DNA of 64,000 nucleotides from an uncultured Spirochaetales bacterium. Its GTDB lineage: Bacteria > Spirochaetota > Spirochaetia > JAFGDJ01. Below are positions 11,198 through 51,045 of the stretch, piece after piece. Under the pieces are notes generated by a model that worked only from the letters and a program-made list of their open reading frames with translations, had not been told where the DNA came from and did not search any database. Within the stretch, counting starts at the first letter, position 1; each line of letters begins with the position of its first letter. The stretch is from NCBI GenBank assembly GCA_964410865.1, contig CAYPIQ010000009.1:9585-73584 (forward strand). Reading direction: 5' to 3'. The position numbers were made by a program, and so were the translations under genes.

Positions 11198-11221
11198 TAC
11201 GCACCCATCCTTTATCGATAC

Positions 11222-34095: not shown

Positions 34096-34219
34096 ACATT
34101 CCCTCCCATAAGGAAATTTATACTCTCCATATAAAGAGACGCCCTTAAGGGAGGCGCTGCTTCGAATAAAAAATATTTTTTTTTAAAAAAGCAAAAGAGG
34201 CAACCGGAGAGTTATCTAT

Positions 34220-34735
34220 ATGCGGGACACCAGTATGAAAAACCTTTTAATACATAAAAGCGCCCGGTTTCTGCCGATGGTAGTGCTCTGTGCCGCCGCG
34301 TGCACGAACGGTGAAAGACACGGGCAGGGCGAAGATCTCTACGATGATGCGCGGAGATTATACCTGGAGGAGCGGTACGATGAAGCTCTGTGTATTGCCG
34401 AGACCGGGGTCGACGAAAACCCGGGGAATCTTTCCTGGATATGCCTGTACGCCAGATTACTGCTGCTGACCGGGCGCCCTCGATTTGCCGAGGGGGTCAT
34501 CAGAGAAGGACTGGAGATACGAACGGAGGACTGTGAACTCCTTCTCCTCCTCGGCCGGGCGGCCTATGCCCTGGGAGATACGGCCTCGGCTCTGCGTCTT
34601 CTCGACGGGGCGGCAGACACCACTGTTTTGGAAGAAGTATACCTGGAGAAAGCCCGGATATTCCTCGATTTCGGAGAAGAAGAAAAGGCTGAAGCGGCGG
34701 TAAGAAAGGCCCTGCTTCTAAGGGGGCTGGAATGA
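34220..34735 (+). CDS. TPR-repeat lipoprotein
   Basis: 171 aa; signal peptide with Cys lipobox (VVLCAAAC), then TPR-like helical repeats (LYDDARRLYLEERYDEALCIAE...); ATGA overlap with the next gene. Confidence 0.6.
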   Translation: MRDTSMKNLLIHKSARFLPMVVLCAAACTNGERHGQGEDLYDDARRLYLEERYDEALCIAETGVDENPGNLSWICLYARLLLLTGRPRFAEGVIREGLEIRTEDCELLLLLGRAAYALGDTASALRLLDGAADTTVLEEVYLEKARIFLDFGEEEKAEAAVRKALLLRGLE

Positions 34736-35166
34736 AAAAATTACTCCTTCTCCAGGCAGTCTTCCTCCTCCTCGGCTGCAGCAGTCTCCCCGTCCGACGA
34801 ATCCTGGATGTGTATGTTGAAAAGGAGATGCGCTCTTCCATCCACCGCATGCTGTTTCACACCGGCAGCGTCAACATTGTTACCGGTGGAATGGGAAAGG
34901 TCCAGGCAGACGAGATAGCCGAACAGATATTTACCAGGAGAAACGCATCGATTCAAAACCCTCAAGGCCGGGCGGAAGTCCATATCACCCTGCATGAAAC
35001 CCCGTTACGAAAATCCTACGGTACCCTTAACTCCGTAACGGTGATCGCGGATATCGTCACCGACCATACTATCGCTTCGGTATTTTTCACCGAGGAAACA
35101 AAGAACAGTCTACAATCGGAGGCCTATATTTATGCCGTGTTCCGCCGCTGCTTTTCGACTCTCTAG
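34732..35166 (+). CDS. small lipoprotein of unknown function
   Basis: 144 aa; MKKLLLLQAVFLLLGCSS lipobox; translationally coupled between the TPR protein and the TolC-like gene. Confidence 0.5.
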   Translation: MKKLLLLQAVFLLLGCSSLPVRRILDVYVEKEMRSSIHRMLFHTGSVNIVTGGMGKVQADEIAEQIFTRRNASIQNPQGRAEVHITLHETPLRKSYGTLNSVTVIADIVTDHTIASVFFTEETKNSLQSEAYIYAVFRRCFSTL

Positions 35167-36520
35167 TCCTACGGTTCTCTTTCTTTTTGCCGCAATCTCT
35201 GCTTCGTCATCCGCCCTTGAACTGGACTTACACGCCGCCGTTGAACTCGCCCTGCGTAATAATCGGGATATACGAAACGGACTCATTGAACTACAAACCG
35301 CGGATAAGAGGTTGGGTGCTCCTATTCTTGACAGGATTCCGTCCGTTACCGTCGGTATATCCGGTTCCGGCCGCACCGTTCGTTTTTCACCGGACAGCCG
35401 ATCATGTTCCTTTACCCTGGCCATCGAGCAGATACTCTTCAACGGGGGAGAGACTGGGCGGGAACTGGAAGACCTGCGTCATGAAATGTCTATCCGTACG
35501 GCACGACACCGGCATATGGAAACAAGCATAATCCTGCTGACGGTTTCCCGGTACGCCCGGGTCCTGGGACTCATTGAAAAGCTTCACATCACCGAGCAAC
35601 AGCTCCAGGCGGCCCGCCGGCAGCTGTCCCTGGCGGAGAAAGAATACAGTCAGGGGGAGTTGCCTGAACTCGAACTGCTCCTCCTGCGGATATCCGTGGG
35701 GCTACAGGAAACATTACTCTTGGAGACCGAACAGGAGCTGAAGAAAGCCCGTCTCGATTTCAGAACGCTCCTGGGCCTGGAAAAGGATCCTGAGCTTACA
35801 GGCCGCTTGAACACCGATTATTCGGGTTTCCTGGATCCTTCTCCGGCGGAAACATATATCGACCTGATGGAGGCCCGCTCTCCCGAGTTCATGGATATGA
35901 GGATGCAGATCCACGGCCTTTCGCTCAGGTTGGAACAGTGGTGGTTATACCGGGTGCCTGTAATTACTCTTCTTGCGAACCTCGATATGGCCGGAGAAGA
36001 TATCGAGAATCTGAATCTAAGCTTTTCTGCCGGACTTCGGTTCGATGTACAGGGCAGTACGTCTCCGGCCGTATCTTTTCAGACGGAATATCTGCCGCCC
36101 TTTCAGAGAAGTATACACGGCTCCGGCTCCGTACACCTCTCGCCGAAAATGGAGGCCCTCCGGGACAGGGAAGATTTGATCCAAAGATTGACGGCCCTTG
36201 AAGAGGAGTACGCCGTCATGGTCGAAAAAGAATCCATGAATGTGGAGTCTCTTCTTCTGGATATCACCGCTTCAAAGGAGAGACTCGAGCTGGGCAGGGA
36301 GAAGCTTCTTGTCCTCCAACGCCGGGCTACCCTGGCCGAAAAACAGCTCGCCCAGGGAGAGATTACCCGCAGCGAGTTCCTGGAATCCCGGGCGGTGCAG
36401 GCCAACCATAATCTGGAACTATTGCAGGAAATTATCGACCTCTTTACCGCTGAACTCGAACTCATGATGACGGCGGGGCTTTCTCCGGATATGTCGGCAA
36501 TCAGGGAAATAATGTTATGA
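35132..36520 (+). CDS. TolC-like outer membrane efflux protein (OMF family)
   Basis: 462 aa; signal peptide then AAVELALRNNRDIRNGLIELQ, typical of the OEP N-terminus; two repeated coiled-coil/beta-barrel halves. Confidence 0.7.
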   Translation: MPCSAAAFRLSSPTVLFLFAAISASSSALELDLHAAVELALRNNRDIRNGLIELQTADKRLGAPILDRIPSVTVGISGSGRTVRFSPDSRSCSFTLAIEQILFNGGETGRELEDLRHEMSIRTARHRHMETSIILLTVSRYARVLGLIEKLHITEQQLQAARRQLSLAEKEYSQGELPELELLLLRISVGLQETLLLETEQELKKARLDFRTLLGLEKDPELTGRLNTDYSGFLDPSPAETYIDLMEARSPEFMDMRMQIHGLSLRLEQWWLYRVPVITLLANLDMAGEDIENLNLSFSAGLRFDVQGSTSPAVSFQTEYLPPFQRSIHGSGSVHLSPKMEALRDREDLIQRLTALEEEYAVMVEKESMNVESLLLDITASKERLELGREKLLVLQRRATLAEKQLAQGEITRSEFLESRAVQANHNLELLQEIIDLFTAELELMMTAGLSPDMSAIREIML

Positions 36521-37854
36521 TCCGCAGCTTGTCCCTTACGGTATTTTTCCTGTTCTGCGTGGCACTCCTTTCGTGCGGCGGCAGGGCAAAGGAAGAACCG
36601 GCGGAGGCGCCTCCCCCGGTGGTGGAAATAATCAAAGTAGAATACAGCGATTACCGCCCACATATCGACACTACAGGGGTTATCGGGGTTACCGGAAAGG
36701 CCGATGTTTTCCCGGTCTCGGAAGGCCTGATTACCGCTTTGCATGCCGAAGAAGGGGATGCAGTGTTCAAGGGGCAGGAATTGGGGAAGCTGGATGACAC
36801 CGACTTACTGATGCGCCGCCGTGAGCTGGAAGCTGAGGCGGATATTATGGAAAGCCGGCTCCGTCTTGCCCGGGCACGTCTTCTTGACGGAGAACGGGAG
36901 GTGGAAAGCAGGCTCAAGAGGCTCGAACTGGACCGGCGCAACCTGGAGGAACTCCGCAGGCAGGTGTCGGAAGCCCGGACCGTGTATAACAACAAAAAAG
37001 CCCTGTACGAACTGGGCGGTGTAAGTGAACGAGAACTGCAACAGTTGAAGGATAATCTCCTGTCGGCTGAAAACAACCTGTACCAGGGAACGGGGCGCTA
37101 CGAAATAACGAGTATAGGATTTAGGGACCTGGACATACTCAACGCCGGGTTCGAGATACCCGTAGACCCCGTTCGACGGGAAGAGGTGCTCATCAGGCTT
37201 AATACCGCCACGCTGCGGGCCGAGGTAGACTCGGCGGAGGCCGAGCTGGAAAAAGTCCGGATCCGGCTGCAGTCGGCGGATCTTCTGCTGCGCAAAACCC
37301 GGCTCCGGAGTCCGATTTCCGGGATTATAGGAGCACGGATGCTCGGCCTAGGTGAAAAAGCCGGGCCGGATACACCGGTGTTCACCGTATTCGCCGACGG
37401 TGCGTACTATGCGGTTGCCCGGGTCTCCGAGTCGGACATGGACAAACTTACTCCGGGGCTGCCCGCGCGTATAAGGTGTTGCGGCCGCCTGGAATGTACG
37501 GGCCGCCTGGAGCGGATTTCGCCCTACGTCGACCCGGAATCTCACTCCGTTGAGGTAAAGATCCTTATCGCGGATCATATTCCGGGTCTGCGGCCGGGGA
37601 TGTATGCCGAAATCAGCATGTTTACCGGACCGACGGAAAAAATCATCCGCTTGCCTCGCTCCGCCCTCAACGACAAAGGCATGATTTTTGTGTATGACCG
37701 GGGACATGTGTTTTCCCGGAAGCCGGAATACCGGCTCATCGACGGATCAACCCTAGCAGTTGTGGAAGGCCTTACGGAAGGAGAGTTTGTATGCGAAAGA
37801 ACGGACGGATATATACGGGACGGCGCCGAGGTACGACCGCGGCAACTCTTTTGA
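36517..37854 (+). CDS. efflux membrane-fusion (periplasmic adaptor, HlyD/RND-MFP family) protein
   Basis: 445 aa; N-terminal anchor, biotinyl/lipoyl-like hairpin (IGVTGKADVFPVSEGLITALHAEEGDAVFKGQELGKLD), long coiled coil, beta-barrel and membrane-proximal domain; ATGA overlap with the OMF gene. Confidence 0.75.
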   Translation: MIRSLSLTVFFLFCVALLSCGGRAKEEPAEAPPPVVEIIKVEYSDYRPHIDTTGVIGVTGKADVFPVSEGLITALHAEEGDAVFKGQELGKLDDTDLLMRRRELEAEADIMESRLRLARARLLDGEREVESRLKRLELDRRNLEELRRQVSEARTVYNNKKALYELGGVSERELQQLKDNLLSAENNLYQGTGRYEITSIGFRDLDILNAGFEIPVDPVRREEVLIRLNTATLRAEVDSAEAELEKVRIRLQSADLLLRKTRLRSPISGIIGARMLGLGEKAGPDTPVFTVFADGAYYAVARVSESDMDKLTPGLPARIRCCGRLECTGRLERISPYVDPESHSVEVKILIADHIPGLRPGMYAEISMFTGPTEKIIRLPRSALNDKGMIFVYDRGHVFSRKPEYRLIDGSTLAVVEGLTEGEFVCERTDGYIRDGAEVRPRQLF

Positions 37855-39251
37855 CACTGTCCCTGGTATCCTGCGGCTCGGGCGTGATGAATAACGAGCT
37901 TATCACCTGCCCGGAATACGACTACCAGGTCATCAGTGAAGATATTGATCCTTCGGTGACTTTTCCCTATCCGGTTATTCAAAAGGAAGCGGAGGATATT
38001 TTCAGTATAACCTGCATGGGTTCCGCCGTTCCCGGAAGATACCGGTGGTCCGCGAACACCCTCTCCTTCATTCCGGACACTCCGCTGACAAGGGGAAAAC
38101 GCTACGTACTGGTCTTTGACGGCCTCTGTGGTGACGTTTCCGGGAAGGACCGCCTGTACCGACTCTGTATACCCTTCTACGTGCTTTCACCGGAATATAC
38201 CCCCCTCTATCTCTCGGGTTCATATCCTTCGGAGGGAAGCTTTATTACAACGCGGCAGGAAATCAGGCTGACCTTCTCCGAAGCCCTGGATGAGTCTTCA
38301 ATCGAAAACTCCTTTCGCCTTGTACCGGAAACACCCGCGGAGACAACCGTATCAGGCAACACCCTCGTTCTCTCTCCCCTTTCCTCCTTTCCGGACGCAA
38401 CCACTCTTACCCTTACTTTTCCGAAGGGACGACTTCAAAGCGTTTCGGGGAAAGGACTGGAGCAGGATACCGAACTGGTATACCGGGTCCAGGAGCATAC
38501 CCAAAGCCCTGAAGTGGCCGGATGTACCGTCTGCATCAACGCCACCGGTTTAGGGTACCCGGAAATACCCGGATCGTCTCCCACGGACCTGGCCGGCGAC
38601 GAAGTTTTTCGGCTCAACTTTACCAGGGCCATGGACCGGCGTGCGGTGGAAGGGCATCTTTTTATCAGTCCCGATCTGCCTTTTGATTGCATATGGCAGG
38701 ATACTGCCTCCCTGGTGGTCATTCCCCGATACCCCCTGACACCTGAAACCTCTTACCTCCTCCGTCTCGGCGGGGGAGCAACCGATACGGGGGGAATTCA
38801 CATTGCCGATGAATATTCCCTGGCATTAGCATCCTCCTCTCCCTTTCTCACGGTAGAGAGGATGGAACTCCTGGGCGACGGCATTACCCTGACCTCCTTT
38901 GATAAAGACACGGCCGAAACAATTTCTCTAGGTCCCGGAGGCTCGGACTACCTCATAGCCCTGGGCTTTTCCCTTCCCGTTACCGAGGTTTACGAAAAAC
39001 AGAACGTACAGGAGAATATAGTCTTTTCCTGTGTATTCCCTCCCTCCGGCGGATCACCCGTCCCCGTCAGTTACTCCTGGGAATCCGACAGTCGCCTGGT
39101 TATCGGCTATTCGGGAATTGCCCCCTCAGGGCCGGAAGAAGACAGATACTACATGATTTCGCTCATCGGCGGGCCGGAGGGTGTATCTGTCCGGGGCGGG
39201 GTTTCCTTCCTGGAGGAAACTGCCGCTCAATTATTACGGAGTATCGAATGA
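37791..39251 (+). CDS. lipoprotein with Ig-like (SbsA/Big_5-type) domains
   Basis: 486 aa; lipobox LVSCGSG; beta-rich repeats such as RLTFSEALDESSIENSFRLVPE; start overlaps the MFP 3' end, so the exact start is uncertain. Confidence 0.5.
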   Translation: MRKNGRIYTGRRRGTTAATLLTLSLVSCGSGVMNNELITCPEYDYQVISEDIDPSVTFPYPVIQKEAEDIFSITCMGSAVPGRYRWSANTLSFIPDTPLTRGKRYVLVFDGLCGDVSGKDRLYRLCIPFYVLSPEYTPLYLSGSYPSEGSFITTRQEIRLTFSEALDESSIENSFRLVPETPAETTVSGNTLVLSPLSSFPDATTLTLTFPKGRLQSVSGKGLEQDTELVYRVQEHTQSPEVAGCTVCINATGLGYPEIPGSSPTDLAGDEVFRLNFTRAMDRRAVEGHLFISPDLPFDCIWQDTASLVVIPRYPLTPETSYLLRLGGGATDTGGIHIADEYSLALASSSPFLTVERMELLGDGITLTSFDKDTAETISLGPGGSDYLIALGFSLPVTEVYEKQNVQENIVFSCVFPPSGGSPVPVSYSWESDSRLVIGYSGIAPSGPEEDRYYMISLIGGPEGVSVRGGVSFLEETAAQLLRSIE

Positions 39252-40621
39252 AGCAAGTACCTCTCCTGTTCCTTCTCACTCTTCTTCTCGCCGGCTGCGG
39301 GCGCATGGTGTGGTTCTTCGATTATACACCGCCGCGGGTTATGGAAGTCCGTGTTGACGAAGGAGTAACAGTGACATTTTCCGAAGAAATGTCCAGGCCG
39401 GTCACCGAGGAGGCTTTCCGGATGGTGGTCGACGACCTACCCGTGGAAGGTGATTTTACCTGGAAGGGTTCGTCAATGTACTTTACCCCCTACATTCCCT
39501 TCCAAGAAAACCCGGTATACCTGGTGACCCTGGACACCGGCGCGGAAGATCTCCACGGTAATTCTCTGGCTGAAGTCTACACTGCCTCTCCGGACCGATC
39601 TTCCGATACCGATCCCCCGCGGGTTACCGAGTATTCACCCGCCCGGGGAGAGCGTGTACATGATCCAAGGCCCCCGGTTACCATTTCCTTTTCGGAACCG
39701 GTTCTTCCCGAAAATTTCCTCCCGGCACTGCGGGTTTCGCCGGTTTTTACTTTTTCCATAGAATGGAACTCCGGCTGCGAATCTGTCATACTGCTCCCCT
39801 TAGAAGATCTGCGGAAGGATACCGAGTACAGGATCTCCGTCGGCAGTGAGTGCACCGATGAAGCCTCGAACGGCCTCAGGCCGGAATGCGCCTTTTACTT
39901 CAAAACCACCCGGGAAGAGACCCCGGAGCTCACCTCGGTGAAGGCCCTCGCGAGCGGCGTGGTGCTCGAGGATCTTGAAACCCGGGAGGTGAACAAGGGT
40001 ATCAGGCACGACGATGTCTTTGAATTAAACTTTTCACAGGCCCTCCGGGAGATGGACATCGATTCGATGGTAGCCCTCGGCCCGGATACGGCGGCGACCT
40101 TCAGGGCGGAGGGAGAATCCACGTTTATCCTCTCTCCGGATACCCCCCTCGAATACGGAAAGGAATACAGCCTGACCATACTCGATGAAACTTATAATCT
40201 CTATTGTAATAACGAAGAATCCATGCCCCCGGCGATTACCGATATCTATATATGCACCGACGGCGCCGGGGCCACCGAAATGCTCCTGCAGCATTCTATA
40301 ACGGAATCCTCGGGAACGGCGGACTTCTATGTCTTTTTGGCCTCTTATACCGGGGTCACTTTTTCAGGGGTCCTCGACAGTTTTGATATCGATATAACCA
40401 ATGCCTGTATCGATCTGGAAATCCTGACGGTTACTGAAAACCCGACACTTCCCGACGGGCTTCGGGAACCCGGGGATACGGAAACAGTGTACCGTTTCTC
40501 GGGGACAATACTGGACCCCCCTCCTCCCGGTATAGTCTCCTTCTCCTTTGATACCCGTTTGGTATCGAAGACCGGGGTCCGTCTACCCCGGGAAGCGGTT
40601 TTTCAAATATCCAACCTCTAG
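39248..40621 (+). CDS. lipoprotein with tandem Ig-like (SbsA/Big_5-type) domains
   Basis: 457 aa; lipobox LLLAGCG; two DxxPPRVxE...VTxxFSExM/V repeats characteristic of Big_5/SbsA Ig-like domains; ATGA overlap with the previous gene. Confidence 0.55.
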   Translation: MKQVPLLFLLTLLLAGCGRMVWFFDYTPPRVMEVRVDEGVTVTFSEEMSRPVTEEAFRMVVDDLPVEGDFTWKGSSMYFTPYIPFQENPVYLVTLDTGAEDLHGNSLAEVYTASPDRSSDTDPPRVTEYSPARGERVHDPRPPVTISFSEPVLPENFLPALRVSPVFTFSIEWNSGCESVILLPLEDLRKDTEYRISVGSECTDEASNGLRPECAFYFKTTREETPELTSVKALASGVVLEDLETREVNKGIRHDDVFELNFSQALREMDIDSMVALGPDTAATFRAEGESTFILSPDTPLEYGKEYSLTILDETYNLYCNNEESMPPAITDIYICTDGAGATEMLLQHSITESSGTADFYVFLASYTGVTFSGVLDSFDIDITNACIDLEILTVTENPTLPDGLREPGDTETVYRFSGTILDPPPPGIVSFSFDTRLVSKTGVRLPREAVFQISNL

Positions 40622-40633
40622 CCGGGGGGTTAC

Positions 40634-43552
40634 ATGAGTTTTTCCGTCAGGCATCCGAAATCGATTATCGCCCTGTTTCTCATGGTACTCCTGTACGGGA
40701 GCATATCACTCTCGAGACTCCCGATCGAACGGTTGCCGAATATTATTATTCCTGAAGCCGTTGTGGTCTGTGAGCGTACCGGTCTGCCCGCCGATGACAT
40801 GGAATCCATGATTACGATACCCCTGGAAAAAGCCATGGCCGGTATTCCCGGGGTAATCGAAACAAGAAGTATTACCAAGCAGGGCATATCCAGGGTCTGC
40901 CTCTGTTTCGACTGGAATACCGACATCACGGAAAAAGCGATTCTGGTCCGGGAAGCCGCCGATGCGGTATACCCCGCCCTGCCGGAGGGGACTGACAGAC
41001 CCTACGTGGACTTCCGGCAGGCGGACGGCGCTCCGTTTATTGAACTTTCCTTTTTCCCGGAGGAAGACACCGGAAACCTGAAAGCTTCCGATATCATGCG
41101 TAACGATATACTGCACAGGTTTCACCGCCTCGAGGGTGTTGCATCGGTCCGCCTGCTCGGTGCGGATGAAGAGGAAATAAAAGTATTTGCCGATTCGGAA
41201 AAACTCGCCTCCCTGGGAATCACCGTCGGGCACATTACCGAAAGTCTTTCCGCTCACATGTTCTCCCTGCCCCTGGGCACGATCGAGGACGGCCTGGAAC
41301 ACCGGGTAATTGCCTCCACGAATGTTCGAACCATTGAAGATATCAAGGCCCTTCCGCTGGCCGTTTCTTCCGGATACATTACCGTGGGTGAAGGCGCAAC
41401 GGTATGCAGGGGAACAAAGGAAATTCGGTCTCTTTACTGCGCAGGAAACACATCGGCATATGGAATTCTTCTGTCAAAAACTGCAGGCGCCGACGCCGCC
41501 GATATATCTCACAGGGTAAGGGACTTACTCGATGATATTAATTCCGAGTTCCGGGGAGTTCTGCGGGGCGCCGTTCTATACGACGGAACCGAAGATATAT
41601 CCTCGTCTCTCCGTTCCGCCGTAGTATCTCTTCTCCTCGGTGCAGGAGCGGCCATGCTTACGGTATTACTTGTGTACCGTGACCTCCGGGTGGGATTGAT
41701 CATCAGTATAAACCTTCCGGCTTCACTCTTTCTGGTATTTCCGGTTATGGACCTGCTCTCCCTCCACCTCAACACCATTTCACTTCTCGGCATGGCCGTG
41801 GCTTCGGGCATGGTAGTGGATAATGCAATTGTTGTTTTCGAAGGAATTACGGAAGAATCGGCTTCCACCGCGGAAGAGGTAATACAGGCCGTACGAAAAG
41901 CCGTTGCTCCTGTCCTTGGTTCTACCGTTTCCACGGTGCTGGTATTTCTGCCGGTTATGCTTATTCCCGGGATAATGGGTGCTCTCTTCAGGGATCTTGT
42001 CCTGTCTATCGCCCTGTTTCTCAGCGGTTCATTCTTCTGGGCCCTTGTCCTTACCCCCGCGCTTTATATGCTGCTGATACATAAAACCCACGGGATGCCG
42101 CGGTTCGCCCCGGCAGGTCTTCAGAAGCGTTTTTTCACCTGGTCAAAGCCGCTGAGCCGACATCCCCGAAGTGCGGCATTGTTCCTCGCCGCCTTCGGGG
42201 TAATCTGCGCCCTAGTGCTGCTTCAGAGGGGCACCAGGCTCTTCCCTGAAGGAACGTCCAGGTATATAGAATTCACCCTGGACCTAGACCCGGCACTCCC
42301 GGTTGAAGAGGTGCACCAACGTCTGCTCGGATTGTCATCCCTTACAGGTTTCCGGCAGGATGAGACGGCCTGGTTCCGGGCTTTCTCCGGCTGCGATGCC
42401 GCATCTGTTCCGGACAAAAGCGACCCGGAAAACGAACTTTACCATGTCCGGGGAGTCATGAAGGTGAATAGGCCTTGCACAACGGAGGACGCATTACGGT
42501 TTCAGGATCACATCACCGCTTTCGAGGGATGCCTCCGGGGGACTGCCCGGCTCCGTAGGGTGGGGATCGAAAGGATCCTCGAAGGGGGGCAATTATGCAG
42601 CTATATTGTAACGGCTCCTACCCGGCCGGAAGCCGAAAAGAAGGCCGTACAGCTCGCGGAAACCATTACACGGGTTAATGAGGATATCCGCTTGAGGTTC
42701 GGCCAGGAAAAAATATGTCCGGCCTCGGAACTTCGGCTTGATTACGATAAACTGGCGGATTCAGGAGTCGACTGTACTTCCGTTATGAGACTCCTACGCC
42801 GTAATATCCAGGGGGATATCGCCGCCGTTCTGGAAGAGGAAGAACGCCGGAGCGATGTGCGTGTACTTTTACAATCAGACCGGAGCCGGCACATCGAGGA
42901 TATACTCAACCATTCGGTACCGGTCGAGAACGGCTTTATCAGTCTGAAGGAGCTGGGTGTATTAAACGAGAGTAAAACATACCCCTACCTGTTACGTATC
43001 GATCGCAGCCCCGCCATAGAGCTTTTCGCCGAACTGCCTTTCCGGGCCGAAGTGCCTGTCCGCGACGGTCCGGGAATACGACGGGTAGAGAACCAGACGG
43101 CCGAAGCACGCCGTATCGGTCGCACCTTTGCAGCGGCCATCCTTTTGATATATCTCTTCCTGGTATTTCTCTTCGAAAATTTTCTACAGCCCTTGTTCAT
43201 GCTGACGATTGTCGGCGCCGGGATAACCGGAAGCCTTACCGCCCTGGCAGTGGGAGGGCTTTCTCTCAACCTCTACTCTTGCCTGGGACTGCTTATTATG
43301 ACGGGCACCTCTTTGAACATGGTTATCCTGGTTTCGGAAAAAATGGGAGGCGAAGGCACGACTGCGTCGGCTCTTACCATGGCTTTCCCCGGAATTTTTA
43401 CTTCGACCTTTACAACCCTTACCGCCCTGGTTCCGCTATTCTTCCTCGGCGACGGGCCGGATATCCCCGCAGTTATGAGCGGTGGACTGGCTTTTTCAAT
43501 GGTCTATTCCCTGACTGTGTACCCCCGGTTATGGAAGGCCGGCACATTATGA
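40634..43552 (+). CDS. RND efflux transporter permease (AcrB/HAE family), first of a tandem pair
   Basis: 972 aa; 12-TM RND architecture with two large periplasmic loops; N-terminal SIIALFLMVLLYG...LPIERLP...IPEAVVV is typical of AcrB-like pumps. Confidence 0.85.
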   Translation: MSFSVRHPKSIIALFLMVLLYGSISLSRLPIERLPNIIIPEAVVVCERTGLPADDMESMITIPLEKAMAGIPGVIETRSITKQGISRVCLCFDWNTDITEKAILVREAADAVYPALPEGTDRPYVDFRQADGAPFIELSFFPEEDTGNLKASDIMRNDILHRFHRLEGVASVRLLGADEEEIKVFADSEKLASLGITVGHITESLSAHMFSLPLGTIEDGLEHRVIASTNVRTIEDIKALPLAVSSGYITVGEGATVCRGTKEIRSLYCAGNTSAYGILLSKTAGADAADISHRVRDLLDDINSEFRGVLRGAVLYDGTEDISSSLRSAVVSLLLGAGAAMLTVLLVYRDLRVGLIISINLPASLFLVFPVMDLLSLHLNTISLLGMAVASGMVVDNAIVVFEGITEESASTAEEVIQAVRKAVAPVLGSTVSTVLVFLPVMLIPGIMGALFRDLVLSIALFLSGSFFWALVLTPALYMLLIHKTHGMPRFAPAGLQKRFFTWSKPLSRHPRSAALFLAAFGVICALVLLQRGTRLFPEGTSRYIEFTLDLDPALPVEEVHQRLLGLSSLTGFRQDETAWFRAFSGCDAASVPDKSDPENELYHVRGVMKVNRPCTTEDALRFQDHITAFEGCLRGTARLRRVGIERILEGGQLCSYIVTAPTRPEAEKKAVQLAETITRVNEDIRLRFGQEKICPASELRLDYDKLADSGVDCTSVMRLLRRNIQGDIAAVLEEEERRSDVRVLLQSDRSRHIEDILNHSVPVENGFISLKELGVLNESKTYPYLLRIDRSPAIELFAELPFRAEVPVRDGPGIRRVENQTAEARRIGRTFAAAILLIYLFLVFLFENFLQPLFMLTIVGAGITGSLTALAVGGLSLNLYSCLGLLIMTGTSLNMVILVSEKMGGEGTTASALTMAFPGIFTSTFTTLTALVPLFFLGDGPDIPAVMSGGLAFSMVYSLTVYPRLWKAGTL

Positions 43553-46440
43553 TTTCCGTTATACACACATCCGGCCGGTCCAGAACAACCGCGGCATTTC
43601 TCATGCTCAGCTGTATAATAATCTGGGTTGCCCGGGGGGTAGCCTTTGAATACTATCCACCGGGCACCGATCGATGGACCTGTATTATATTCGAGTATCC
43701 CGGTGCTTCGGCGGAACTACTCGAGGAGAGCATCATTCGACCTTTCGAAGAGTTCACCGCCGGAATCGCCGGCATCAGAGAACAACAGGTTATTATCCAT
43801 GACGGCCGGGCCCGTTATTATATCGGGCATCATCCTTCCGTTTCCCCCGTCGATGCCCTGGTACAGATACGCGGCTCTTTAAAACGTTTGGACCCCATAC
43901 TACCGGCCCCGGCCAGGCGGCCTGTTATAGAATCCGGAGGACAGTCGGAGAACCCGGTGCTCATTATCGGACTCACGCCGGCTCCAGGGATGAGTGTGGA
44001 AACCCTGGTGCAGGTATTCTCCGGGATAGAAGGCTGCAGCCGGGTTGAAACCTGCGGTCATGAGCACGAATCACTCTATATCGAAACCCGGGAAGATGCA
44101 TCCAATACAGCCTTACTGTCGATACAGGATATTCTCACCGCACTATCCGGACGCACAGCTTCGGGTTCTCTGACCCTGGAAAGCGGTGAGTTCCTGGTCT
44201 TGGATTCCCGTCCGTGGTCCATGGAGGATTATAGGAATATCACCCTGCGGCCGTATCTGCGCCTCGGCGAAACGGCCGATGTGGGTATGCGGACCGGAAA
44301 AGAGTATTCGGCTTCACTTATCAACGGACAAAAACAGGCTGTGGTTCTTCTATATGCCGAAGACGGAGCTGATATTATAAAATTATGTTGCGCCGGTGTG
44401 CGTGCGGCACGGTCCATCCCCGGCGCCGATCCTGTGGTCCTTTACGATCTTGGGCACAGGACCCGGGAGAATCTTACCGACATGCTCTTCAATACGGCGG
44501 CGGGGATAGTTATAGTGATACTTGTTACAATACTGCTTTTGAGAGACCTGAAAGCCGCGGCTCTAGCGTCTCTTACCATCCCCTTCAGCCTTTTTGCAAC
44601 CGCCGCCGTATTTCGTATCACCGGAACATCCCTCAATATGGTAACCATATCGGGCCTGGCGGTTGCCAACGGCCTGGTTATGGACGGCTCTTATATTGTG
44701 ATTACCCACCTCAGGACCGCGGGGATATCCGGCCTCCGGACGTGTGCCGCGGCCCTTTTGGCATCGGTATGTACAACAGCGGCGGTGTGCGTACCGGTAA
44801 GATTACTTACGCCGGAGGTGTATGGTCCTTTCGGTGGACTTTTTTCAGCGGTGTTTTGGACCCTTCTTGCCGGGTATGTCTATAGCCTGGTGTTCATCCC
44901 GGGCTTATACACTCCCCCCAGGAGCCTGCCATCCGCCACCGGGGGCCTCATGCGCGGCGGCGCCGGGGCTCTGTTTAACTTTGGTAAGCGTCGTCCGGTT
45001 CTTTCGACGGTATATGTGGCTTCCGGATGCCTTGTTGCCTGTTTCCTGTTGGGATATACGCCCTTTGAAAGAGTACCGTTAAAGGATACTCATGTTCTGA
45101 ACTTTCAGATCGAGTTTCCCGCCGGGACTCCCCTTGACCGGATGATCCGATCGGCCGGCCCCATGGAACATGCCCTTCAGGAAATTCCGGGGGTAATGAA
45201 CGTTTCCAGCCGATACAGGGATGAACAGATCAGGATATGCCTTTCCCTGGCTACCCGGACATCGGAAGAAACCGTTGCAGATAAGGTTCAACGATTACAC
45301 TACCTGATACCCGGGGGCGATATTCATATACCGAAACAAAGTGGCCGGAAAGACATGGAGGTGAGGGTATACGGACCGGATAACATACTGCTGCGGTCCA
45401 TTGCCGCCGACCTCGGGGGACATATCGAAGAAAAATTTCCCGGTTGTAAGGTTATCCTTCATTTCAAAGAACCCGTGGAGACCTGCCTTCTCTCTATCAA
45501 TACGGACAAGACGGCTTCCGCCGGGATCACTCCGCTTAAACTCTATCAGGAATTATACTGGAAATTTCTCGAACCCGTCGGCGGGAAGGCGTTTTTTTCC
45601 GGCGGGGAAAGGGATATTCATGTGACCCGTACAAAGCCGTCCGGCCCGGTAACACTACAGGAATATCTTCACACCACTTTGTCCGTACCAGGAGGACATT
45701 CCCCTGTCGGTGAGTTTGTCTCTGCCTGTTATGTTCCTTCCACCGGCACTATCTATCGGTACAATCGGCGGAGGGTACAGTCCCTTACACTGCGGTTTCC
45801 TGAACGTACCTCCGAAAAAAGGATCCGTTCTATAATAGAATACCTCGCCGCATACCCGGTCAGGGACGGTTATTCCATCCGGGTGGGTTCGCATTCTTTG
45901 GAAGATCAGGAGAGTCGAAAACGAATTACTATATCCGCCCTGGCAGGGACGGCCTCGGTGGTACTTATCATTTTTTTCTACTTTGGTTCCTTCAATAAAG
46001 CCCTGGCATGCCTGGTTATCGGGCTCGGAGCGCTTCCTCTGCCGGTGTTCTTACATATTATTGTTTTCCAAAAAGCGGTATCTACACCACTTGTGCTGGG
46101 CCTTCTGCTGGTATTCGGTGTTCAGGTTAATAACGGAATCATCCTTCTTAGACACCGTGAAGATACACCGGGTGATCTGTTCGTCCGTCTCTGCTCCAAG
46201 GCGGAGGCCATTCTGGGGGCGGCGATAACCAGTACGGCGGGGATACTACCACTGCTGGTGCTGGAATCGGAGACCCGCCGGTTCATGGCAGCCCTGCTGG
46301 GGACACTGGCAGCGGGAACTTTGTACGGAACCCTGATACTACCGGTATTGCTGGGGGCCTTTCAATCCAGGATTATGCAAAAGTACCGGGGAACGAAATC
46401 CTCCCCCTCGATCCCTTCTACCCTCATCAGGTTGAAATAA
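43549..46440 (+). CDS. RND efflux transporter permease (AcrB/HAE family), second of the tandem pair
   Basis: 964 aa from an ATG in an ATGA overlap with the upstream stop (the track ORF extends further upstream in-frame into the first RND gene); RND topology throughout. Confidence 0.85.
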   Translation: MISVIHTSGRSRTTAAFLMLSCIIIWVARGVAFEYYPPGTDRWTCIIFEYPGASAELLEESIIRPFEEFTAGIAGIREQQVIIHDGRARYYIGHHPSVSPVDALVQIRGSLKRLDPILPAPARRPVIESGGQSENPVLIIGLTPAPGMSVETLVQVFSGIEGCSRVETCGHEHESLYIETREDASNTALLSIQDILTALSGRTASGSLTLESGEFLVLDSRPWSMEDYRNITLRPYLRLGETADVGMRTGKEYSASLINGQKQAVVLLYAEDGADIIKLCCAGVRAARSIPGADPVVLYDLGHRTRENLTDMLFNTAAGIVIVILVTILLLRDLKAAALASLTIPFSLFATAAVFRITGTSLNMVTISGLAVANGLVMDGSYIVITHLRTAGISGLRTCAAALLASVCTTAAVCVPVRLLTPEVYGPFGGLFSAVFWTLLAGYVYSLVFIPGLYTPPRSLPSATGGLMRGGAGALFNFGKRRPVLSTVYVASGCLVACFLLGYTPFERVPLKDTHVLNFQIEFPAGTPLDRMIRSAGPMEHALQEIPGVMNVSSRYRDEQIRICLSLATRTSEETVADKVQRLHYLIPGGDIHIPKQSGRKDMEVRVYGPDNILLRSIAADLGGHIEEKFPGCKVILHFKEPVETCLLSINTDKTASAGITPLKLYQELYWKFLEPVGGKAFFSGGERDIHVTRTKPSGPVTLQEYLHTTLSVPGGHSPVGEFVSACYVPSTGTIYRYNRRRVQSLTLRFPERTSEKRIRSIIEYLAAYPVRDGYSIRVGSHSLEDQESRKRITISALAGTASVVLIIFFYFGSFNKALACLVIGLGALPLPVFLHIIVFQKAVSTPLVLGLLLVFGVQVNNGIILLRHREDTPGDLFVRLCSKAEAILGAAITSTAGILPLLVLESETRRFMAALLGTLAAGTLYGTLILPVLLGAFQSRIMQKYRGTKSSPSIPSTLIRLK

Positions 46441-46533
46441 TCTTGCCATTACATTATCTTTAGGGTTATATTTTGCAATTTTATCACGAGGTAGCTATCC
46501 CTATGTATTAGCGCAATTTTTGCGGGTTAGAAG

Positions 46534-48555
46534 ATGAAAAAAGATACCAATAAAACCATTCTACTGGTGGAAGATGAAACACTCATCGCCATGGCCGAAG
46601 CAGCTCACCTGGAAAAGACCGGCTACAACGTTATTACCGTATACACGGGAGAGGCCGCCATCGAAGCCGTCGAATCATCTCCCGAGATAGCATTGATCCT
46701 CATGGATATCGACCTGGGCAAGGATAGAATGGACGGGACCGTGACAGCCGAACACATCCTATCCGGTCATGATCTGCCGGTTGTTTTTCTTTCCAGCCAC
46801 ATGGAATCCGAGATCGTGGAGAAAACGGAAAAAATCACCTCCTACGGATATATTGTAAAGGATTCGGGCTATAAAGTCCTGGATGCCTCGATACGGATGG
46901 CTCTCAAGTTGTTCGAAGCCAATCAGGAAATCAAAGAGAGCAGGAAAGAGGCGGAAAAAGCCTACCTGGAAATGGAGCGGAGGGAAGAACGCCTGCAGCA
47001 TATGAACCGCGTTCTCCTGTCCATTCGAAACGTCAATCAGCTGATAACGAAAGAAAACGACCGGCACAGGCTTTTGCAACAAGCATGCCGACTGCTCATA
47101 GAGACCAGCGGGTATCACAGCGCCTCGGTTATTCTTATCGAAGACAATGTGCCCCTGGAACCCTTTTATTATACCGGCCCCGGACAGAATTTTGCCCCCA
47201 TGGCCGAAGAATTACGGGCAGGTCATATTCCTCCTTGTATTCTCGAAGCCCTTGAGACCGGCAAAATCGTTCTCCTTAACAGTGCGCACCATGCATGTCC
47301 CGGTTGCCCCCTTCTTACGCATGACGATTATCATGTATTCAGTGATTCACGAGCCGACGGAATGGTTACACGCCTCGAACACGGCGGATTTGTATACGGG
47401 TGGATAATCGTATCCGTCCCCAGGGGCTTCCTGATGGATGAAGAAGAACGCCAATTGTTTCGGGAAATCTCCGGAGACATCGCACTTGCACTGTACAAGA
47501 ACAGGATAGAGGAAGAAAAGGAACGCTTTAACACCATGCTGACCGAGAGCCGGGAAGCCCTCAGAAAAAATGAAGACCGTTTGCAGAAAATACTAACGGC
47601 TGCACAGGACGGCACCTGGGACTGGGACCTCAACACCGGTACGGTATTTTTTGACCCCCGATATTATGAGATGGCGGGGTACACCTTTAACGAGTTCCCG
47701 CCGGAGTATGAAGAATTCCGAAAACGAGTCCATCCTGAAGATCTCCCCCTGGTCGAACGCACTATTAACCTCCACCTCGAAGGGGCAATAGATCACTTCA
47801 GCGTGGAGTTCAGATTTTTACAATGTAACGGAGAATGGCTATGGATTCTGGGAAGGGGAAAGATCGTAGAAAAAAATGAAGACGGCACCCCTGCACGCTT
47901 TGTAGGCACCCATACCGATATCTCGCGGCTTAAGCAGGTGGAAAGCCGGTTGGAAGAGGCCCTCCGCGAAAAGGACACACTGCTGCGGGAGCTCAAACAC
48001 CGGGTTAAAAATAATTTCAACATGATGACAAGCATGATACATCTTAAAATGGACACCCTGGAGGACAAGGCGACCATCGACTGTCTGAAAGAAGTGGAAA
48101 ACAGAATTAATGCGTTTTCCGAACTCTATACCCAGCTCTACCGGGATGAAAATCAGAAAGAAATTCAACTCGAGACCTACCTGGAAAACTTGATTACATC
48201 CATGAACACTACCGCCGGTGATGTAAGAATTCGTTTTGATTTAGCGGAGACGACCATTCCCATGAAAAAGGCGGCTACGCTGGGGCTTATCGTCACAGAG
48301 CTGGTAACCAACGCTCTCAAGCACTCCTTCCCCGATAGTCGGCATGGCACCATAATGATCAAGCACTCCGAAAAAGGAAGCACCTCCGTACTCGTAGTGG
48401 AAAACGACGGTATACCTTTCCCGCAGGATTTCAGCATCGATTCATCCCCGGGGCTCGGTCTGAAGATGGTCCGGGGTATGGTGAAAGACCTTAACGGAAC
48501 CCTGGCTATCCATGGCAACAAAAAGTCCGGAGTATACATAACCTTTAAACCCTGA
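46534..48555 (+). CDS. hybrid signalling protein: REC - Cys-rich GAF - PAS - HisKA_2 - HATPase_c histidine kinase
   Basis: 673 aa; N-terminal receiver (LLVEDE...ILMDIDLG); GAF-like segment with HHACPGCPLL; PAS with the DGTWDWDL signature; H-box LKHRVKNNFNMMTSM typical of HisKA_2/HWE kinases; ATP-binding domain. Confidence 0.8.
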   Translation: MKKDTNKTILLVEDETLIAMAEAAHLEKTGYNVITVYTGEAAIEAVESSPEIALILMDIDLGKDRMDGTVTAEHILSGHDLPVVFLSSHMESEIVEKTEKITSYGYIVKDSGYKVLDASIRMALKLFEANQEIKESRKEAEKAYLEMERREERLQHMNRVLLSIRNVNQLITKENDRHRLLQQACRLLIETSGYHSASVILIEDNVPLEPFYYTGPGQNFAPMAEELRAGHIPPCILEALETGKIVLLNSAHHACPGCPLLTHDDYHVFSDSRADGMVTRLEHGGFVYGWIIVSVPRGFLMDEEERQLFREISGDIALALYKNRIEEEKERFNTMLTESREALRKNEDRLQKILTAAQDGTWDWDLNTGTVFFDPRYYEMAGYTFNEFPPEYEEFRKRVHPEDLPLVERTINLHLEGAIDHFSVEFRFLQCNGEWLWILGRGKIVEKNEDGTPARFVGTHTDISRLKQVESRLEEALREKDTLLRELKHRVKNNFNMMTSMIHLKMDTLEDKATIDCLKEVENRINAFSELYTQLYRDENQKEIQLETYLENLITSMNTTAGDVRIRFDLAETTIPMKKAATLGLIVTELVTNALKHSFPDSRHGTIMIKHSEKGSTSVLVVENDGIPFPQDFSIDSSPGLGLKMVRGMVKDLNGTLAIHGNKKSGVYITFKP

Positions 48556-49161: not shown

Positions 49162-51045
49162 ATGTCTGAGAGAATAAAACCCGATCATACCCGGAAATCA
49201 ACAGTAAAAAGCGACATACTACTTGTTGGTCAACCTAATGTAGGTAAAAGCGTTCTCTTTTCACACATTACCGGTGTTAGAACCATCGCATCCAATTATC
49301 CGGGCACCACCGTATCCTATGCTTCGGGAAGAACAAAGTATAAAAACCGGGAACTCTATGTGGTTGATGCGCCCGGAACATATTCCCTCGAACCCTTGGA
49401 CGAAGCCGGAAGAGTCACCGTACAACTCCTTGATCATGCACAGCGGGTAATCAATGTGGTCGACGCAACGCATCTAGAACGCCATCTGCCCCTTACCATG
49501 GAATTGCAGGCACAAACCGGAGATTCTCTTGTTATTGCACTTAACATGTGCGACGAGGCACGGCATAGAGGAATTTCCATCGATACGGAGCTGCTTTCGC
49601 AGAGACTCGGGGCACCGGTGGTGCCGATTGTCGCCCGCACGGGCGAGGGCATCAAAACCTTGATACAAACGGTCATGGAGCGCCCGCCTCGTACCTTTTC
49701 TTCTGCCGATGGAGAGGATAAGCCCGGCCGGCATTCTCATATTAAATATCATGCTCATCCGCCGGGCTCCGACCATTCGCATATAGAACGGCACAGGGTG
49801 TGGGAGAGAATCGGTGATATCGTGGATGAAACCCAGACTCTTCACCACCATCATCACACCTTCGGTGAACGGCTGGAAGACCTGAGCGTCCATCCTGTTT
49901 GGGGAAGTATCATAGCCGTGGTGGTACTCGCCGTATCCTTTAGTCTTATCAGGCTGATAGGAGAATTCCTTATCGGAGGAGGCCTGGGTATTCTCGGCGA
50001 ACCCTGGGTGGAAATTCCCTTCGGTACGGAACTACTCTTCGAGAGGGGGGTAAAACCTCTTCTTATGCGCTTGTCGGATTTTCTTGGTTCCGGCGGCTTT
50101 CTCCATGGGCTACTCATAGGCAGCCTTATAGAGGGCGAGATAGACTTTATGCAGTCCTTCGGCATCCTCACATCCGGTATCTTTGTACCCCTGGGGGCAG
50201 TCTTGCCCTACATTATCAGCTTTTACCTGGTTCTTTCTCTTCTCGAAGATTCCGGTTACCTCCCCCGACTGGCGGTATTCCTGGATAACCTGATGCACAG
50301 ACTGGGACTTCACGGGTATGCCATTATCCCTACCCTCCTCGGGCTCGGTTGCAATGTCCCCGGCATCATGGCTACCCGTATACTCGAAAGCAGGCGGCAG
50401 CGCTTTATAACGGCGACACTCATTTCCACGGCAGTTCCGTGTGCGGCCCTGCAGGCAATGATAATCGGCATTGTAGGCGATCGAGGACTTGGAGCCTTAC
50501 TCTGGGTATTCGGTTCCCTGGTGGTTGTATGGCTTTTGGTGGGGATTATTCTCAGGTTCACATCGAAAGAATTCCGCCCGGAACTGCTGATAGAGATTCC
50601 CCCCTACCGGCTGCCTTCCTTTAAGGCCATACTGTCAAAAATGTGGATGCGTACAGGCGGGTTCCTGCGGGAAGCCCTGCCGGTTATCATGGGAGCGGTG
50701 CTGGTGGTAAACATTCTCTACCAGCTCGACGTGTTCCAATACCTCGCCCGGGCGGCAAGACCTCTTGTTACATATCTGTGGGGAATGCCTGAAGAATCGA
50801 TTGTTCCGCTGTTGATAGGTATACTGCGTAAAGATGTCGCCGTGGGTATGTTTATTCCACTGGCCTTGACCACGAAGCAATTGATTATCGGCAGTGTTGT
50901 CCTGGCCTTGTTTTTCCCCTGCCTTGCAACATTCGTCGTACTCTTCAGGGAGCTCGGGCTCAAGGACGGCCTCAAGTCTATCGGCCTGATGCTTATCGTG
51001 GTAACCGCAACCGGATCAATATTAAATCTTATTCTCCAGGGCTGA
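49162..51045 (+). CDS. feoB: ferrous iron transporter B (G-protein domain plus membrane permease)
   Basis: 627 aa; N-terminal GTPase motifs (LVGQPNVGKSVLF, DAPG, NMCD), then a polytopic permease domain with FeoB gate motifs. Confidence 0.85.
   Translation: MSERIKPDHTRKSTVKSDILLVGQPNVGKSVLFSHITGVRTIASNYPGTTVSYASGRTKYKNRELYVVDAPGTYSLEPLDEAGRVTVQLLDHAQRVINVVDATHLERHLPLTMELQAQTGDSLVIALNMCDEARHRGISIDTELLSQRLGAPVVPIVARTGEGIKTLIQTVMERPPRTFSSADGEDKPGRHSHIKYHAHPPGSDHSHIERHRVWERIGDIVDETQTLHHHHHTFGERLEDLSVHPVWGSIIAVVVLAVSFSLIRLIGEFLIGGGLGILGEPWVEIPFGTELLFERGVKPLLMRLSDFLGSGGFLHGLLIGSLIEGEIDFMQSFGILTSGIFVPLGAVLPYIISFYLVLSLLEDSGYLPRLAVFLDNLMHRLGLHGYAIIPTLLGLGCNVPGIMATRILESRRQRFITATLISTAVPCAALQAMIIGIVGDRGLGALLWVFGSLVVVWLLVGIILRFTSKEFRPELLIEIPPYRLPSFKAILSKMWMRTGGFLREALPVIMGAVLVVNILYQLDVFQYLARAARPLVTYLWGMPEESIVPLLIGILRKDVAVGMFIPLALTTKQLIIGSVVLALFFPCLATFVVLFRELGLKDGLKSIGLMLIVVTATGSILNLILQG

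Follow-up and report, generated by a model that had tools for sequence, protein, structure and literature searches.

An uncultured Spirochaetales bacterium carries, on a 64,000-nucleotide (nt) stretch of DNA (contig CAYPIQ010000009.1, positions 9,585 to 73,584; hereafter the window), a cassette of eight genes that we identify with high confidence as a resistance-nodulation-division (RND)-type tripartite system. What is new here is that the tripartite system combines a conserved and unprecedented group of accessory lipoproteins with two deeply diverged pump proteins; so far it is confined to uncultured spirochaetes. Literature searches on immunoglobulin (Ig)-like lipoproteins with RND pumps, on spirochaete RND systems and on Big_5 domains with efflux turned up no account of the cassette. 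Taken as a whole, the explanation towards which we lean, with a modest preference, is an elaborated tripartite RND exporter, driven by the proton-motive force and probably heteromeric, which would be supported by a scaffold at the outer membrane and in the periplasm and would carry an endogenous envelope cargo.

The ORF reading of the window gives eight consecutive plus-strand open reading frames (ORFs) spanning 34220-46440, with protein lengths in amino acids (aa):

34220-34735, plus strand: lipoprotein with tetratricopeptide repeats (TPR lipoprotein), 171 aa; alternative start at ATG 34235; probable lipobox AAAC
34732-35166, plus strand: small lipoprotein, 144 aa; lipobox LLGC
35132-36520, plus strand: TolC-type outer-membrane factor (OMF), 462 aa; non-lipoprotein signal peptide
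36517-37854, plus strand: lipoprotein membrane-fusion (adaptor) protein (MFP), 445 aa
37791-39251, plus strand: Ig1 lipoprotein, 486 aa; tandem Big_5 Ig-like domains
39248-40621, plus strand: Ig2 lipoprotein, 457 aa; four beta-sandwich domains, as modelled
40634-43552, plus strand: RND1 permease, 972 aa
43549-46440, plus strand: RND2 permease, 963 aa; highly divergent

These genes are packed tightly. Overlaps of 4 nt join the TPR lipoprotein to the small lipoprotein, the OMF to the MFP, Ig1 to Ig2 and RND1 to RND2; the small lipoprotein and OMF genes overlap by 35 nt and the MFP and Ig1 genes by 64 nt, and the only gap, of 12 nt, lies between Ig2 and RND1. A preliminary description of this DNA had reported the overlapping eight-gene layout with five 4-nt junctions; the overlaps and the single gap stand, and the 4-nt junctions number four, a fifth arising only if Ig1 begins at an alternative TTG. 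That codon (TTG 37851, giving 466 aa and a 4-nt overlap) was the choice of one gene caller and leaves just seven residues ahead of the lipobox Cys. We place the start at ATG 37791 because a usable lipoprotein signal peptide is obtained only from there (MRKNGRIYTGRRRGTTAATLLTLSLVSC) and because the long MFP/Ig1 overlap is retained in relatives (55 nt in locus L002, 58 nt in L003). The longest ORF for RND2 runs from TTG 43279; the start picked by gene callers, ATG 43549, has a GGAAGG Shine-Dalgarno sequence and yields the 4-nt overlap with RND1. A purine-rich Shine-Dalgarno-like stretch precedes all chosen starts, and five of the products (the TPR and small lipoproteins, the MFP, Ig1 and Ig2) carry lipobox-type signal peptides. 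A scan for promoters and terminators returned nothing inside the operon above the background expected from shuffled sequence.

The cassette was followed into other genomes by context look-ups from homologues of Ig2, RND1 and the small lipoprotein, and by searching 185,579 species genomes in addition for a degenerate DNA pattern made of two MFP motifs at fixed spacing, which had been validated on all known loci before the scan. The pattern matched eight GTDB species and added just one metagenome contig; a scan of genome contigs with RND1 alone detected no relative, and the RND1 motifs were left out as a scan pattern because they are common to generic RND pumps. Adaptor identity sorts the carriers into about five lineages (L-numbers denote the loci found):

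Lineage A: the window, L002, L003 and L008
Lineage B: L010, L011, L018 and L023
Lineage C: L012 and L014, including Spirochaetaceae bacterium 4572_59
Lineage D: L016, L025 and L021
Lineage E: L017/L028, L024 and L022

The order (TPR)-small lipoprotein-OMF-MFP-Ig1-Ig2-RND1-RND2 recurs in the relatives found, with two variations, one in lineage C and one in L017/L028. Between lineages, orthologues of all eight proteins are 21-35% identical, and still the order and overlaps of 1-8 nt persist at most junctions: this conservation of coupling and gene order is far beyond chance. The eight genes appear to form one vertically inherited operon specific to a clade of uncultured Spirochaetaceae/Spirochaetales. 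The translational coupling proposed in the preliminary description holds, both in the overlaps themselves and in the tight coupling and order kept by distant relatives. The comparative check suggested there has now been run, and the order recurs in about five lineages and eight GTDB species; the accessory lipoprotein genes, which might have been absent from syntenic relatives, proved to be integral to the cassette down to 21-32% identity. Where that description needs amending is in treating the eight genes as a single unit: the order is conserved, but the whole block of TPR lipoprotein, small lipoprotein and OMF is missing at the locus in L017/L028 of lineage E and, because the three are missing together, we regard it as a separable outer-membrane module.

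Of the eight species genomes, seven bear the labels Spirochaetaceae or Spirochaetales; the eighth, a metagenome-assembled genome (MAG), is labelled Planctomycetota. This MAG is MohnsGC08_bin181, and the loci concerned are L017 (VRUG01000028.1) and L028 (SDBV01024070.1). Its adaptor shares 97% identity with that of a metagenome contig and 60% with the one in a Spirochaetales MAG, which suggests mis-binning, mis-labelling or horizontal transfer. Proteins identical to those of the window are recorded in one NCBI contig and one SRA assembly. In L010, a gap of 211 nt (5797-6009) separates Ig1 from the called start of Ig2, and the called Ig2 has no signal peptide, although every orthologue has one; a wrongly called start, a local assembly fault or a frameshift is the probable cause.

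The family labels that the preliminary description had given all eight genes are borne out by Pfam and NCBIfam scans, in which the small lipoprotein belongs to no family. The MFP scores 153.6 bits against the TIGR01730 RND_mfp model (cut-off 94.9), which places it in the adaptor family, and carries all four standard domains (lipoyl, hairpin, beta-barrel and membrane-proximal). Its family profile matches TriAB, MexJ, AcrA and MexA, the best solved match being the TriAB fusion (E 4e-43). Against TriAB and MexJ only the positions outside 118-234 are matched; with Aquifex aeolicus EmrA the profile is colinear over 66-336, and among solved adaptors EmrA alone stays colinear along the long hairpin. 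From that gap and this colinearity we conclude that the hairpin is about 90 residues longer than those of TriA and MexJ, that is, of EmrA length; HH_EMRA, Beta-barrel_RND_2 and YknX_C domains are recorded in adaptor orthologues. The OMF matches Pfam OEP (PF02321) at 78.7 bits (6e-22) in two stretches, the two repeats expected of an OMF. Its matches to TIGR01844 and TIGR01845 stay below the cut-offs of those models and its best PDB match is an OprJ-like protein (4e-5), so that it reads as a distant but clear member of the TolC family.

Both permeases belong to the ACR_tran family of Pfam (RND1, 385 bits, 7e-115; RND2, 184 bits, 6e-54), and hydropathy gives each the twelve-transmembrane (TM) layout of RND pumps, in which periplasmic loops of about 300 aa separate TM1 from the TM2-7 cluster and that cluster from TM8-12. 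The best PDB matches of RND1 are pumps of the AcrB/MexB type (about 1e-44, chiefly in the N-terminal half), and that of RND2 is MdtB (7.5e-19, restricted to the N-terminal half). The cut-off of 1250 bits for the NCBIfam models RND_permease_1 and RND_permease_2 is reached by neither protein (291/255 bits for RND1, 126/89 for RND2), nor are those of the MdtB and MdtC equivalogs (1584/1774; 144/183 bits for RND1, 54/64 for RND2) or of TIGR00914, the CusA/CzcA model (701; 132 bits for RND1 and 44 for RND2, below the scores with HAE1-type models).

Why should one cassette keep two such different permeases? RND1 is about 20% identical to RND2 and 25% identical to generic pumps. In a distance tree each has a clade of its own, that of RND1 being distinct from generic RND pumps too, and the branching inside the two clades agrees for each lineage in turn, from which we conclude that they are co-inherited; their 4-nt overlap is kept in six relatives. 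RND1 and RND2 would accordingly seem to be anciently diverged, co-inherited partners. Co-inheritance is what a heteromer predicts, not proof of one, and a heteromeric pump like MdtBC is plausible. RND1 and RND2 might instead be independent homotrimers with different substrates, served by one common adaptor and duct. Such an arrangement suits their low mutual identity and the complete RND topology and own conserved relay residues in each; we nonetheless think it rather unlikely, given that the two are strictly co-inherited, that their trees match and their 4-nt overlap is conserved in nearly all lineages, that a single adaptor gene serves two very different pumps, and that the Ig lipoproteins are duplicated in parallel.

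The proton relay of AcrB (D407-D408 in TM4, K940 in TM10, R971 in TM11) is absent from both permeases, and alignments show that the equivalents of D408, K940 and R971 are replaced. RND1 has VVDN in TM4 (Asp-Asn) and SLNM in TM10, and RND2 has VMDG in TM4 (Asp-Gly, or Asp-Ala) and VNNG in TM10, with Asn at the Lys position in each. The first Asp of TM4 and the TM10 Asn are invariant across the orthologues of each pump; D379, N861 and N862 of RND2 are invariant in eight orthologues, and its periplasmic residues are under purifying selection despite the extreme divergence of the protein. This pattern, whose Asp-Asn is found in the nearest generic pumps too, points to a relay of a different type, not to a dead pump. 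The RND2 motifs (D-G/D-A in TM4, VNNG in TM10) may resemble those of heavy-metal efflux (HME) pumps such as CzcA and CusA, and distant matches to the Big_5 domains overlap CopC annotations; together they could suggest metal efflux of the Cus/Czc kind, with the Ig-like lipoproteins as metallochaperones resembling CopC or CusF. We rejected this reading on the family scores, TIGR00914 giving 132 and 44 bits where 701 are called for, and the invariant columns of Ig1 and Ig2 contain no conserved His, Met or Cys clusters and no metal-binding pattern; metal efflux is disfavoured as highly improbable.

Among the accessory proteins, the small lipoprotein carries no annotation. Neither the protein, nor its 12-member alignment, nor ten distant relatives have a relevant Pfam or NCBIfam match, only chance-level hits to unrelated families. 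Its family comprises 12 clusters by word search, 'hypothetical' wherever they are named, and a profile search clustered at 50% identity gives about 100; the lipobox Cys (LLGC, Cys16) is an invariant column in both family alignments. A distant relative, P0200, sits on a contig of 5,053,413 bp (NCBI, ENA), probably a complete genome, and could belong to a tractable organism. The AlphaFold2 model of the small lipoprotein has a predicted local distance difference test score (pLDDT) of 85 and a predicted template-modelling score (pTM) of 0.76. In a Foldseek search of the PDB its top ten matches are all PelC (E 5e-5 to 3e-4, TM-score 0.46-0.61), followed by LptE, PelBC and CsgG, and the model accordingly predicts an alpha/beta core fold like that of PelC, LptE and CsgG. 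Proteins of the PqiC, LptE, CsgG and PelC kinds are outer-membrane lipoproteins that have this alpha/beta core in common and act at trans-envelope conduits (PMC13631591), and PelC forms a dodecameric ring on the TPR-containing PelB (PMC12141448).

The product of the first gene matches Pfam TPR_19 (4e-9) and ANAPC3 (2e-7) and has orthologues of 171-262 aa with lipoboxes in L002, L010, L011, L018, L021, L024 and L025. Because the small-lipoprotein gene overlaps that of the non-lipidated OMF, follows the TPR lipoprotein gene and is lost with both in L017/L028, we infer from fold class and gene position that the small lipoprotein and the TPR lipoprotein may form an outer-membrane collar or assembly module. 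The same two proteins, encoded next to each other by the first genes of the operon, recall the Pel exopolysaccharide apparatus, in which PelC rings work with TPR-containing PelB (PMC12141448), and one might imagine a Pel-like apparatus in which a TPR protein and a PelC-like ring combine with an OMF that replaces the PelB barrel. No glycosyltransferase or synthase, PelA, PelD, PelE, PelF, PelG or PelB-type barrel is present in the cassette or consistently near it, and polysaccharide export is not known for RND pumps. We rejected the Pel-type reading on its missing components (the synthase and the TPR-linked porin) and consider it very unlikely.

Both Ig lipoproteins belong to the Big_5 family (PF13205, gathering score 23.6), Ig1 with 83.4 bits (2e-23) and Ig2 with 93.9 bits (1e-26), in two stretches each. 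Aligned with hhalign, they are colinear over about 310 columns (probability 99.9%, E 7e-36), which marks them as ancient paralogues, and Ig1 is present in all relatives examined. The AlphaFold2 model of Ig2 (pLDDT 75) has domains at 30-115, 125-220, 228-320 and 329-457, and its fold matches in Foldseek are generic Ig rods: the S-layer proteins SbsC and SbsB, the Ig stalk of the L,D-transpeptidase LdtMt2, and the alpha-2-macroglobulin ECAM. As modelled, Ig2 is a lipid-anchored rod of four Ig-like domains, a spacer or stalk architecture with no catalytic hints.

From these parts we can sketch how the machine might work. RND1 and RND2 would cooperate in the inner membrane, a hetero-oligomer being the simplest arrangement, and the proton gradient would drive them through the single invariant TM4 Asp and the TM10 Asn. 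The adaptor hairpin, of EmrA length, would reach the duct across the spirochaetal periplasm. The roles proposed for the accessory proteins are tentative. The small lipoprotein and the TPR lipoprotein could provide the lipid-free duct with a collar or an assembly module anchored in the outer membrane, comparable in function to YbjP on TolC, PelC on PelB or PqiC on PqiB. Ig1 and Ig2 could serve as lipid-anchored stalks, possibly one per RND paralogue, that brace the assembly or pass cargo, for which MmpS with MmpL offers a loose precedent. The cargo would more likely be an endogenous amphiphilic envelope component than drugs.

Several observations weigh against this explanation. The roles of the four accessory lipoproteins derive solely from fold class and gene position, and the PelC match on which one of them leans is moderate (TM-score 0.5-0.6, about 10% identity, in a simple alpha/beta fold), with no sequence-level link between the small lipoprotein and the PelC class in the Pfam and NCBIfam scans. 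The TPR lipoprotein is not obligatory, its gene being missing from the lineage C loci (L012, L014). The data on the two permeases fit two homotrimers with one adaptor and duct as well. The Asp-Asn of TM4 occurs also in the nearest generic RND pumps (from Gemmatimonadota, Firmicutes and others); the relay is therefore not specific to the cassette and says little about cargo. Among the families and motifs found, no feature of the operon points to a substrate, and the carriers are all MAGs.

The simplest competing explanation is an ordinary xenobiotic or multidrug pump whose extra lipoproteins are a structural adaptation of the lineage to the spirochaetal envelope, with its wide flagellated periplasm and unusual outer membrane, and say nothing of a special cargo. 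An RND, MFP and OMF core is what such a pump would have, the nearest relatives of RND1 are generic pumps labelled HAE1, and a long adaptor hairpin and Ig stalks fit a role in spacing; there is precedent, too, in YbjP, a lipoprotein partner of TolC that can be dispensable for efflux (PMC13082787). Yet both permeases fall far under all curated multidrug-RND cut-offs (291 and 126 against 1250 bits), RND2 combines extreme divergence with purifying selection on its periplasmic residues, the fold of the PelC/LptE type is otherwise tied to polymer or lipid export (PMC13631591), and a giant-protein gene recurs as neighbour. An ordinary drug pump is thus a serious contender that we regard as unlikely. 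The view of the preliminary description, that the operon specifies an export machine and not a drug pump, finds only indirect support, in the predicted PelC/LptE-like fold of the small lipoprotein, the conservation of the accessory genes, a relay unlike that of AcrB and the recurrent giant neighbour.

This neighbour lies upstream on the opposite strand; the preliminary description had placed the operon divergent from it, as we find in the window. The gene, the divergent intergenic region and the homologues of the gene at other loci are:

25204-34095, minus strand: giant-protein gene, 2963 aa; acidic, Ala/Glu/Leu-rich
34096-34219: intergenic stretch that separates the divergent giant and TPR lipoprotein genes; A/T-rich (AATAAAAAATATTTTTTTTTAAAAAAG)
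L002, 1-4851: giant homologue, 83% identity
L011, 1-2471: giant homologue, 27.6% identity over 609 aa, E 4e-29
L024, 3-587: giant homologue, E 7e-27
L028, 1109-3145: giant homologue, E 6e-72; abuts the adaptor gene directly

The giant protein begins with a segment that looks like a signal or an anchor, has internal hydrophobic stretches near residues 1569-1597 and 2263-2281, and matches nothing in Pfam, NCBIfam or the PDB. Its homologues, 25-35% identical between lineages, divergently adjoin the cassette in L002, L011, L024 and L028, hence in lineages A, B and E (three of the five); none is adjacent to the cassette in lineage C (L012, L014) or in L025/L026. This adjacency suggests a functional or regulatory link, which is not established. 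Within the intergenic region, 34139-34189 contains a GC hairpin at 34139-34157 (GCGCCTCCCTTAAGGGCGT) and then a long A/T tract, and may be a shared regulatory element. The region contains no Rfam family and no consensus sigma-70 match; it is presumed to hold the promoters of both divergent units. On the far side of the giant gene, 10 nt downstream and on the same strand, a 365-aa ORF (24096-25193, minus strand) without a family match may be co-transcribed with it. Lineage B has, between the giant and TPR genes, a gene for a 144-aa coiled-coil protein (L011 2579-3013, L010 3-266 and L018 2-211, all on the minus strand) with repeated (E/D)(V/I/F)D(K/R)RF(E/A) units and a hydrophobic tail at its C-terminus; no counterpart of this gene exists in the window.

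Does the cassette serve the giant protein? After Sec export, the protein might be moved, anchored or assembled by the cassette in the periplasm or at the surface. The divergent homologues in lineages A, B and E, at 25-35% identity, would agree with this, as would the N-terminal signal-like segment and the arrangement in L028, where the giant gene abuts the MFP gene though the TPR lipoprotein, small lipoprotein and OMF genes are missing. Against it, lineage C and L025/L026 have no giant gene beside the cassette, divergent adjacency may mean no more than shared regulation or ancestry, and no RND pump is known to export a folded or giant protein. We judge such a service improbable. The broader proposal, in which the cassette and the giant gene together make up a hitherto unrecognised, spirochaete-specific trans-envelope machine, with an RND heteromer, an adaptor, Ig-rod lipoproteins and a TolC-type duct inside a PelC-like ring, and in which its cargo would be a macromolecular envelope component and not small molecules, either the giant protein or a polymer or lipid linked to it, fares little better and is doubtful in our view. 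A type I secretion system (Lap- or RTX-like) was considered separately and rejected, since the cassette has no ATP-binding cassette (ABC) gene, no RTX-type repeats were noted on reading the giant protein, and the signal-like segment of that protein is N-terminal where type I substrates have a C-terminal signal.

Downstream of the cassette lies one further gene that the preliminary description had drawn into its picture:

46534-48555, plus strand: hybrid kinase with REC-GAF-PAS-HisKA_2-HATPase domains (Pfam)

The kinase does stand directly downstream in the window, as that description said, but it is a neighbour in the window's own lineage only (kept in L002, with a variant in L008 at 9099-11501) and is preceded by a promoter-like site of its own (46443-46472, 10/12 matches). 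We rejected it as an operon member on these grounds, and it is probably a separate transcription unit. Lineages A and B both have hybrid histidine kinases with PAS domains in the vicinity of the cassette (for B, L011 17667-19271, minus strand), with differing architectures and strands. Lineage C has an envelope/flagellum neighbourhood instead of the giant gene: its flanks (L012 2806-3666 and 15825-19525; L014 16132-19814) encode a flagellin-modification protein of the Maf type, a transpeptidase of the PBP2 type and a signal peptidase, and L012 also has a flagellin gene upstream.

The flanks of the window itself are ordinary chromosomal metabolic and regulatory genes. On the minus strand, 2154-22787 encodes a xanthine-dehydrogenase-like molybdoenzyme, amidohydrolases, an aldehyde:ferredoxin oxidoreductase, an Fe-S protein like dihydroorotate dehydrogenase (DHODH), a GntR regulator and an ABC uptake system of the Bmp/PnrA type, and looks like a cluster for anaerobic purine/pyrimidine salvage or catabolism. 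Downstream, on the plus strand, are FeoB (49162-51045), a HisKA kinase with a sigma-54-dependent response regulator (55078-57623) and a GAF-fused phosphoenolpyruvate-utilising enzyme resembling PtsP (57800-60100).

Tripartite pumps are usually pictured with three components, and lipoprotein partners such as YbjP and the PelC and PqiC rings have been recognised only recently. The operon described here hard-wires four accessory lipoproteins and two deeply diverged pump subunits into an RND system, and keeps them together in lineages whose proteins are only about 25-35% identical. If the accessory proteins assemble on the pump, it would be a natural example of a TolC-type duct collared at the outer membrane; it would then show how an RND machine is fitted to the envelope of spirochaetes, and might reveal a route for the export of an envelope component in a group whose outer-membrane biogenesis is poorly understood. 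The recurrent pairing with a giant secreted protein offers a concrete lead.

Set beside known systems, the cassette is closest in its core to the HAE1 pumps AcrAB-TolC and MexAB-OprM, with which it has in common an RND permease, a lipoprotein adaptor and an OMF with two OEP repeats. It differs from them in its two very different RND genes, its four extra lipoprotein genes and its OMF-first order, as well as in the replaced AcrB relay, the multidrug scores below cut-off and an adaptor hairpin longer by about 90 residues. With MdtABC and MuxABC it shares two adjacent, coupled and co-inherited RND genes served by a single adaptor. The kinship between MdtB and MdtC is much closer than that between RND1 and RND2, which are about 20% identical and fail the MdtB and MdtC equivalogs. 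TriABC-OpmH provides, in the TriAB fusion, the best solved match for the adaptor, whereas the cassette has one adaptor gene and its duplicated periplasmic parts are Ig-like lipoproteins, not adaptors; the likeness to A. aeolicus EmrA lies in the colinear long hairpin.

The accessory proteins call up other comparisons. The small lipoprotein is similar in size to the PelC/LptE/CsgG/PqiC class and its model matches PelC best. Members of that class ring or plug outer-membrane export conduits (PMC13631591, PMC12141448), whereas the small lipoprotein has no detectable sequence kinship with them and its presumed partner is a TolC-type duct, not a porin-type barrel or an MCE needle. YbjP is a small lipoprotein on the non-lipidated TolC of E. 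coli and has been proposed to give the duct its lipid anchor (PMC13082787). The resemblance lies in the overlap of the small-lipoprotein gene with that of a non-lipidated OMF; YbjP, however, is a DUF3828 protein that is missing among the fold matches of the small lipoprotein, and its gene is part of no pump operon, so the analogy is functional only. Ig1 and Ig2 resemble MmpS, whose periplasmic domain is a beta-sandwich, as membrane-anchored periplasmic accessories encoded beside RND genes. In mycobacteria, MmpS proteins are encoded next to the genes for the MmpL (RND) transporters and are needed for function (PMC12122801). Where MmpS is anchored by a TM segment, Ig1 and Ig2 are lipid-anchored, four-domain Big_5 proteins of about 460-490 aa, and they occur together with a classical MFP and OMF.

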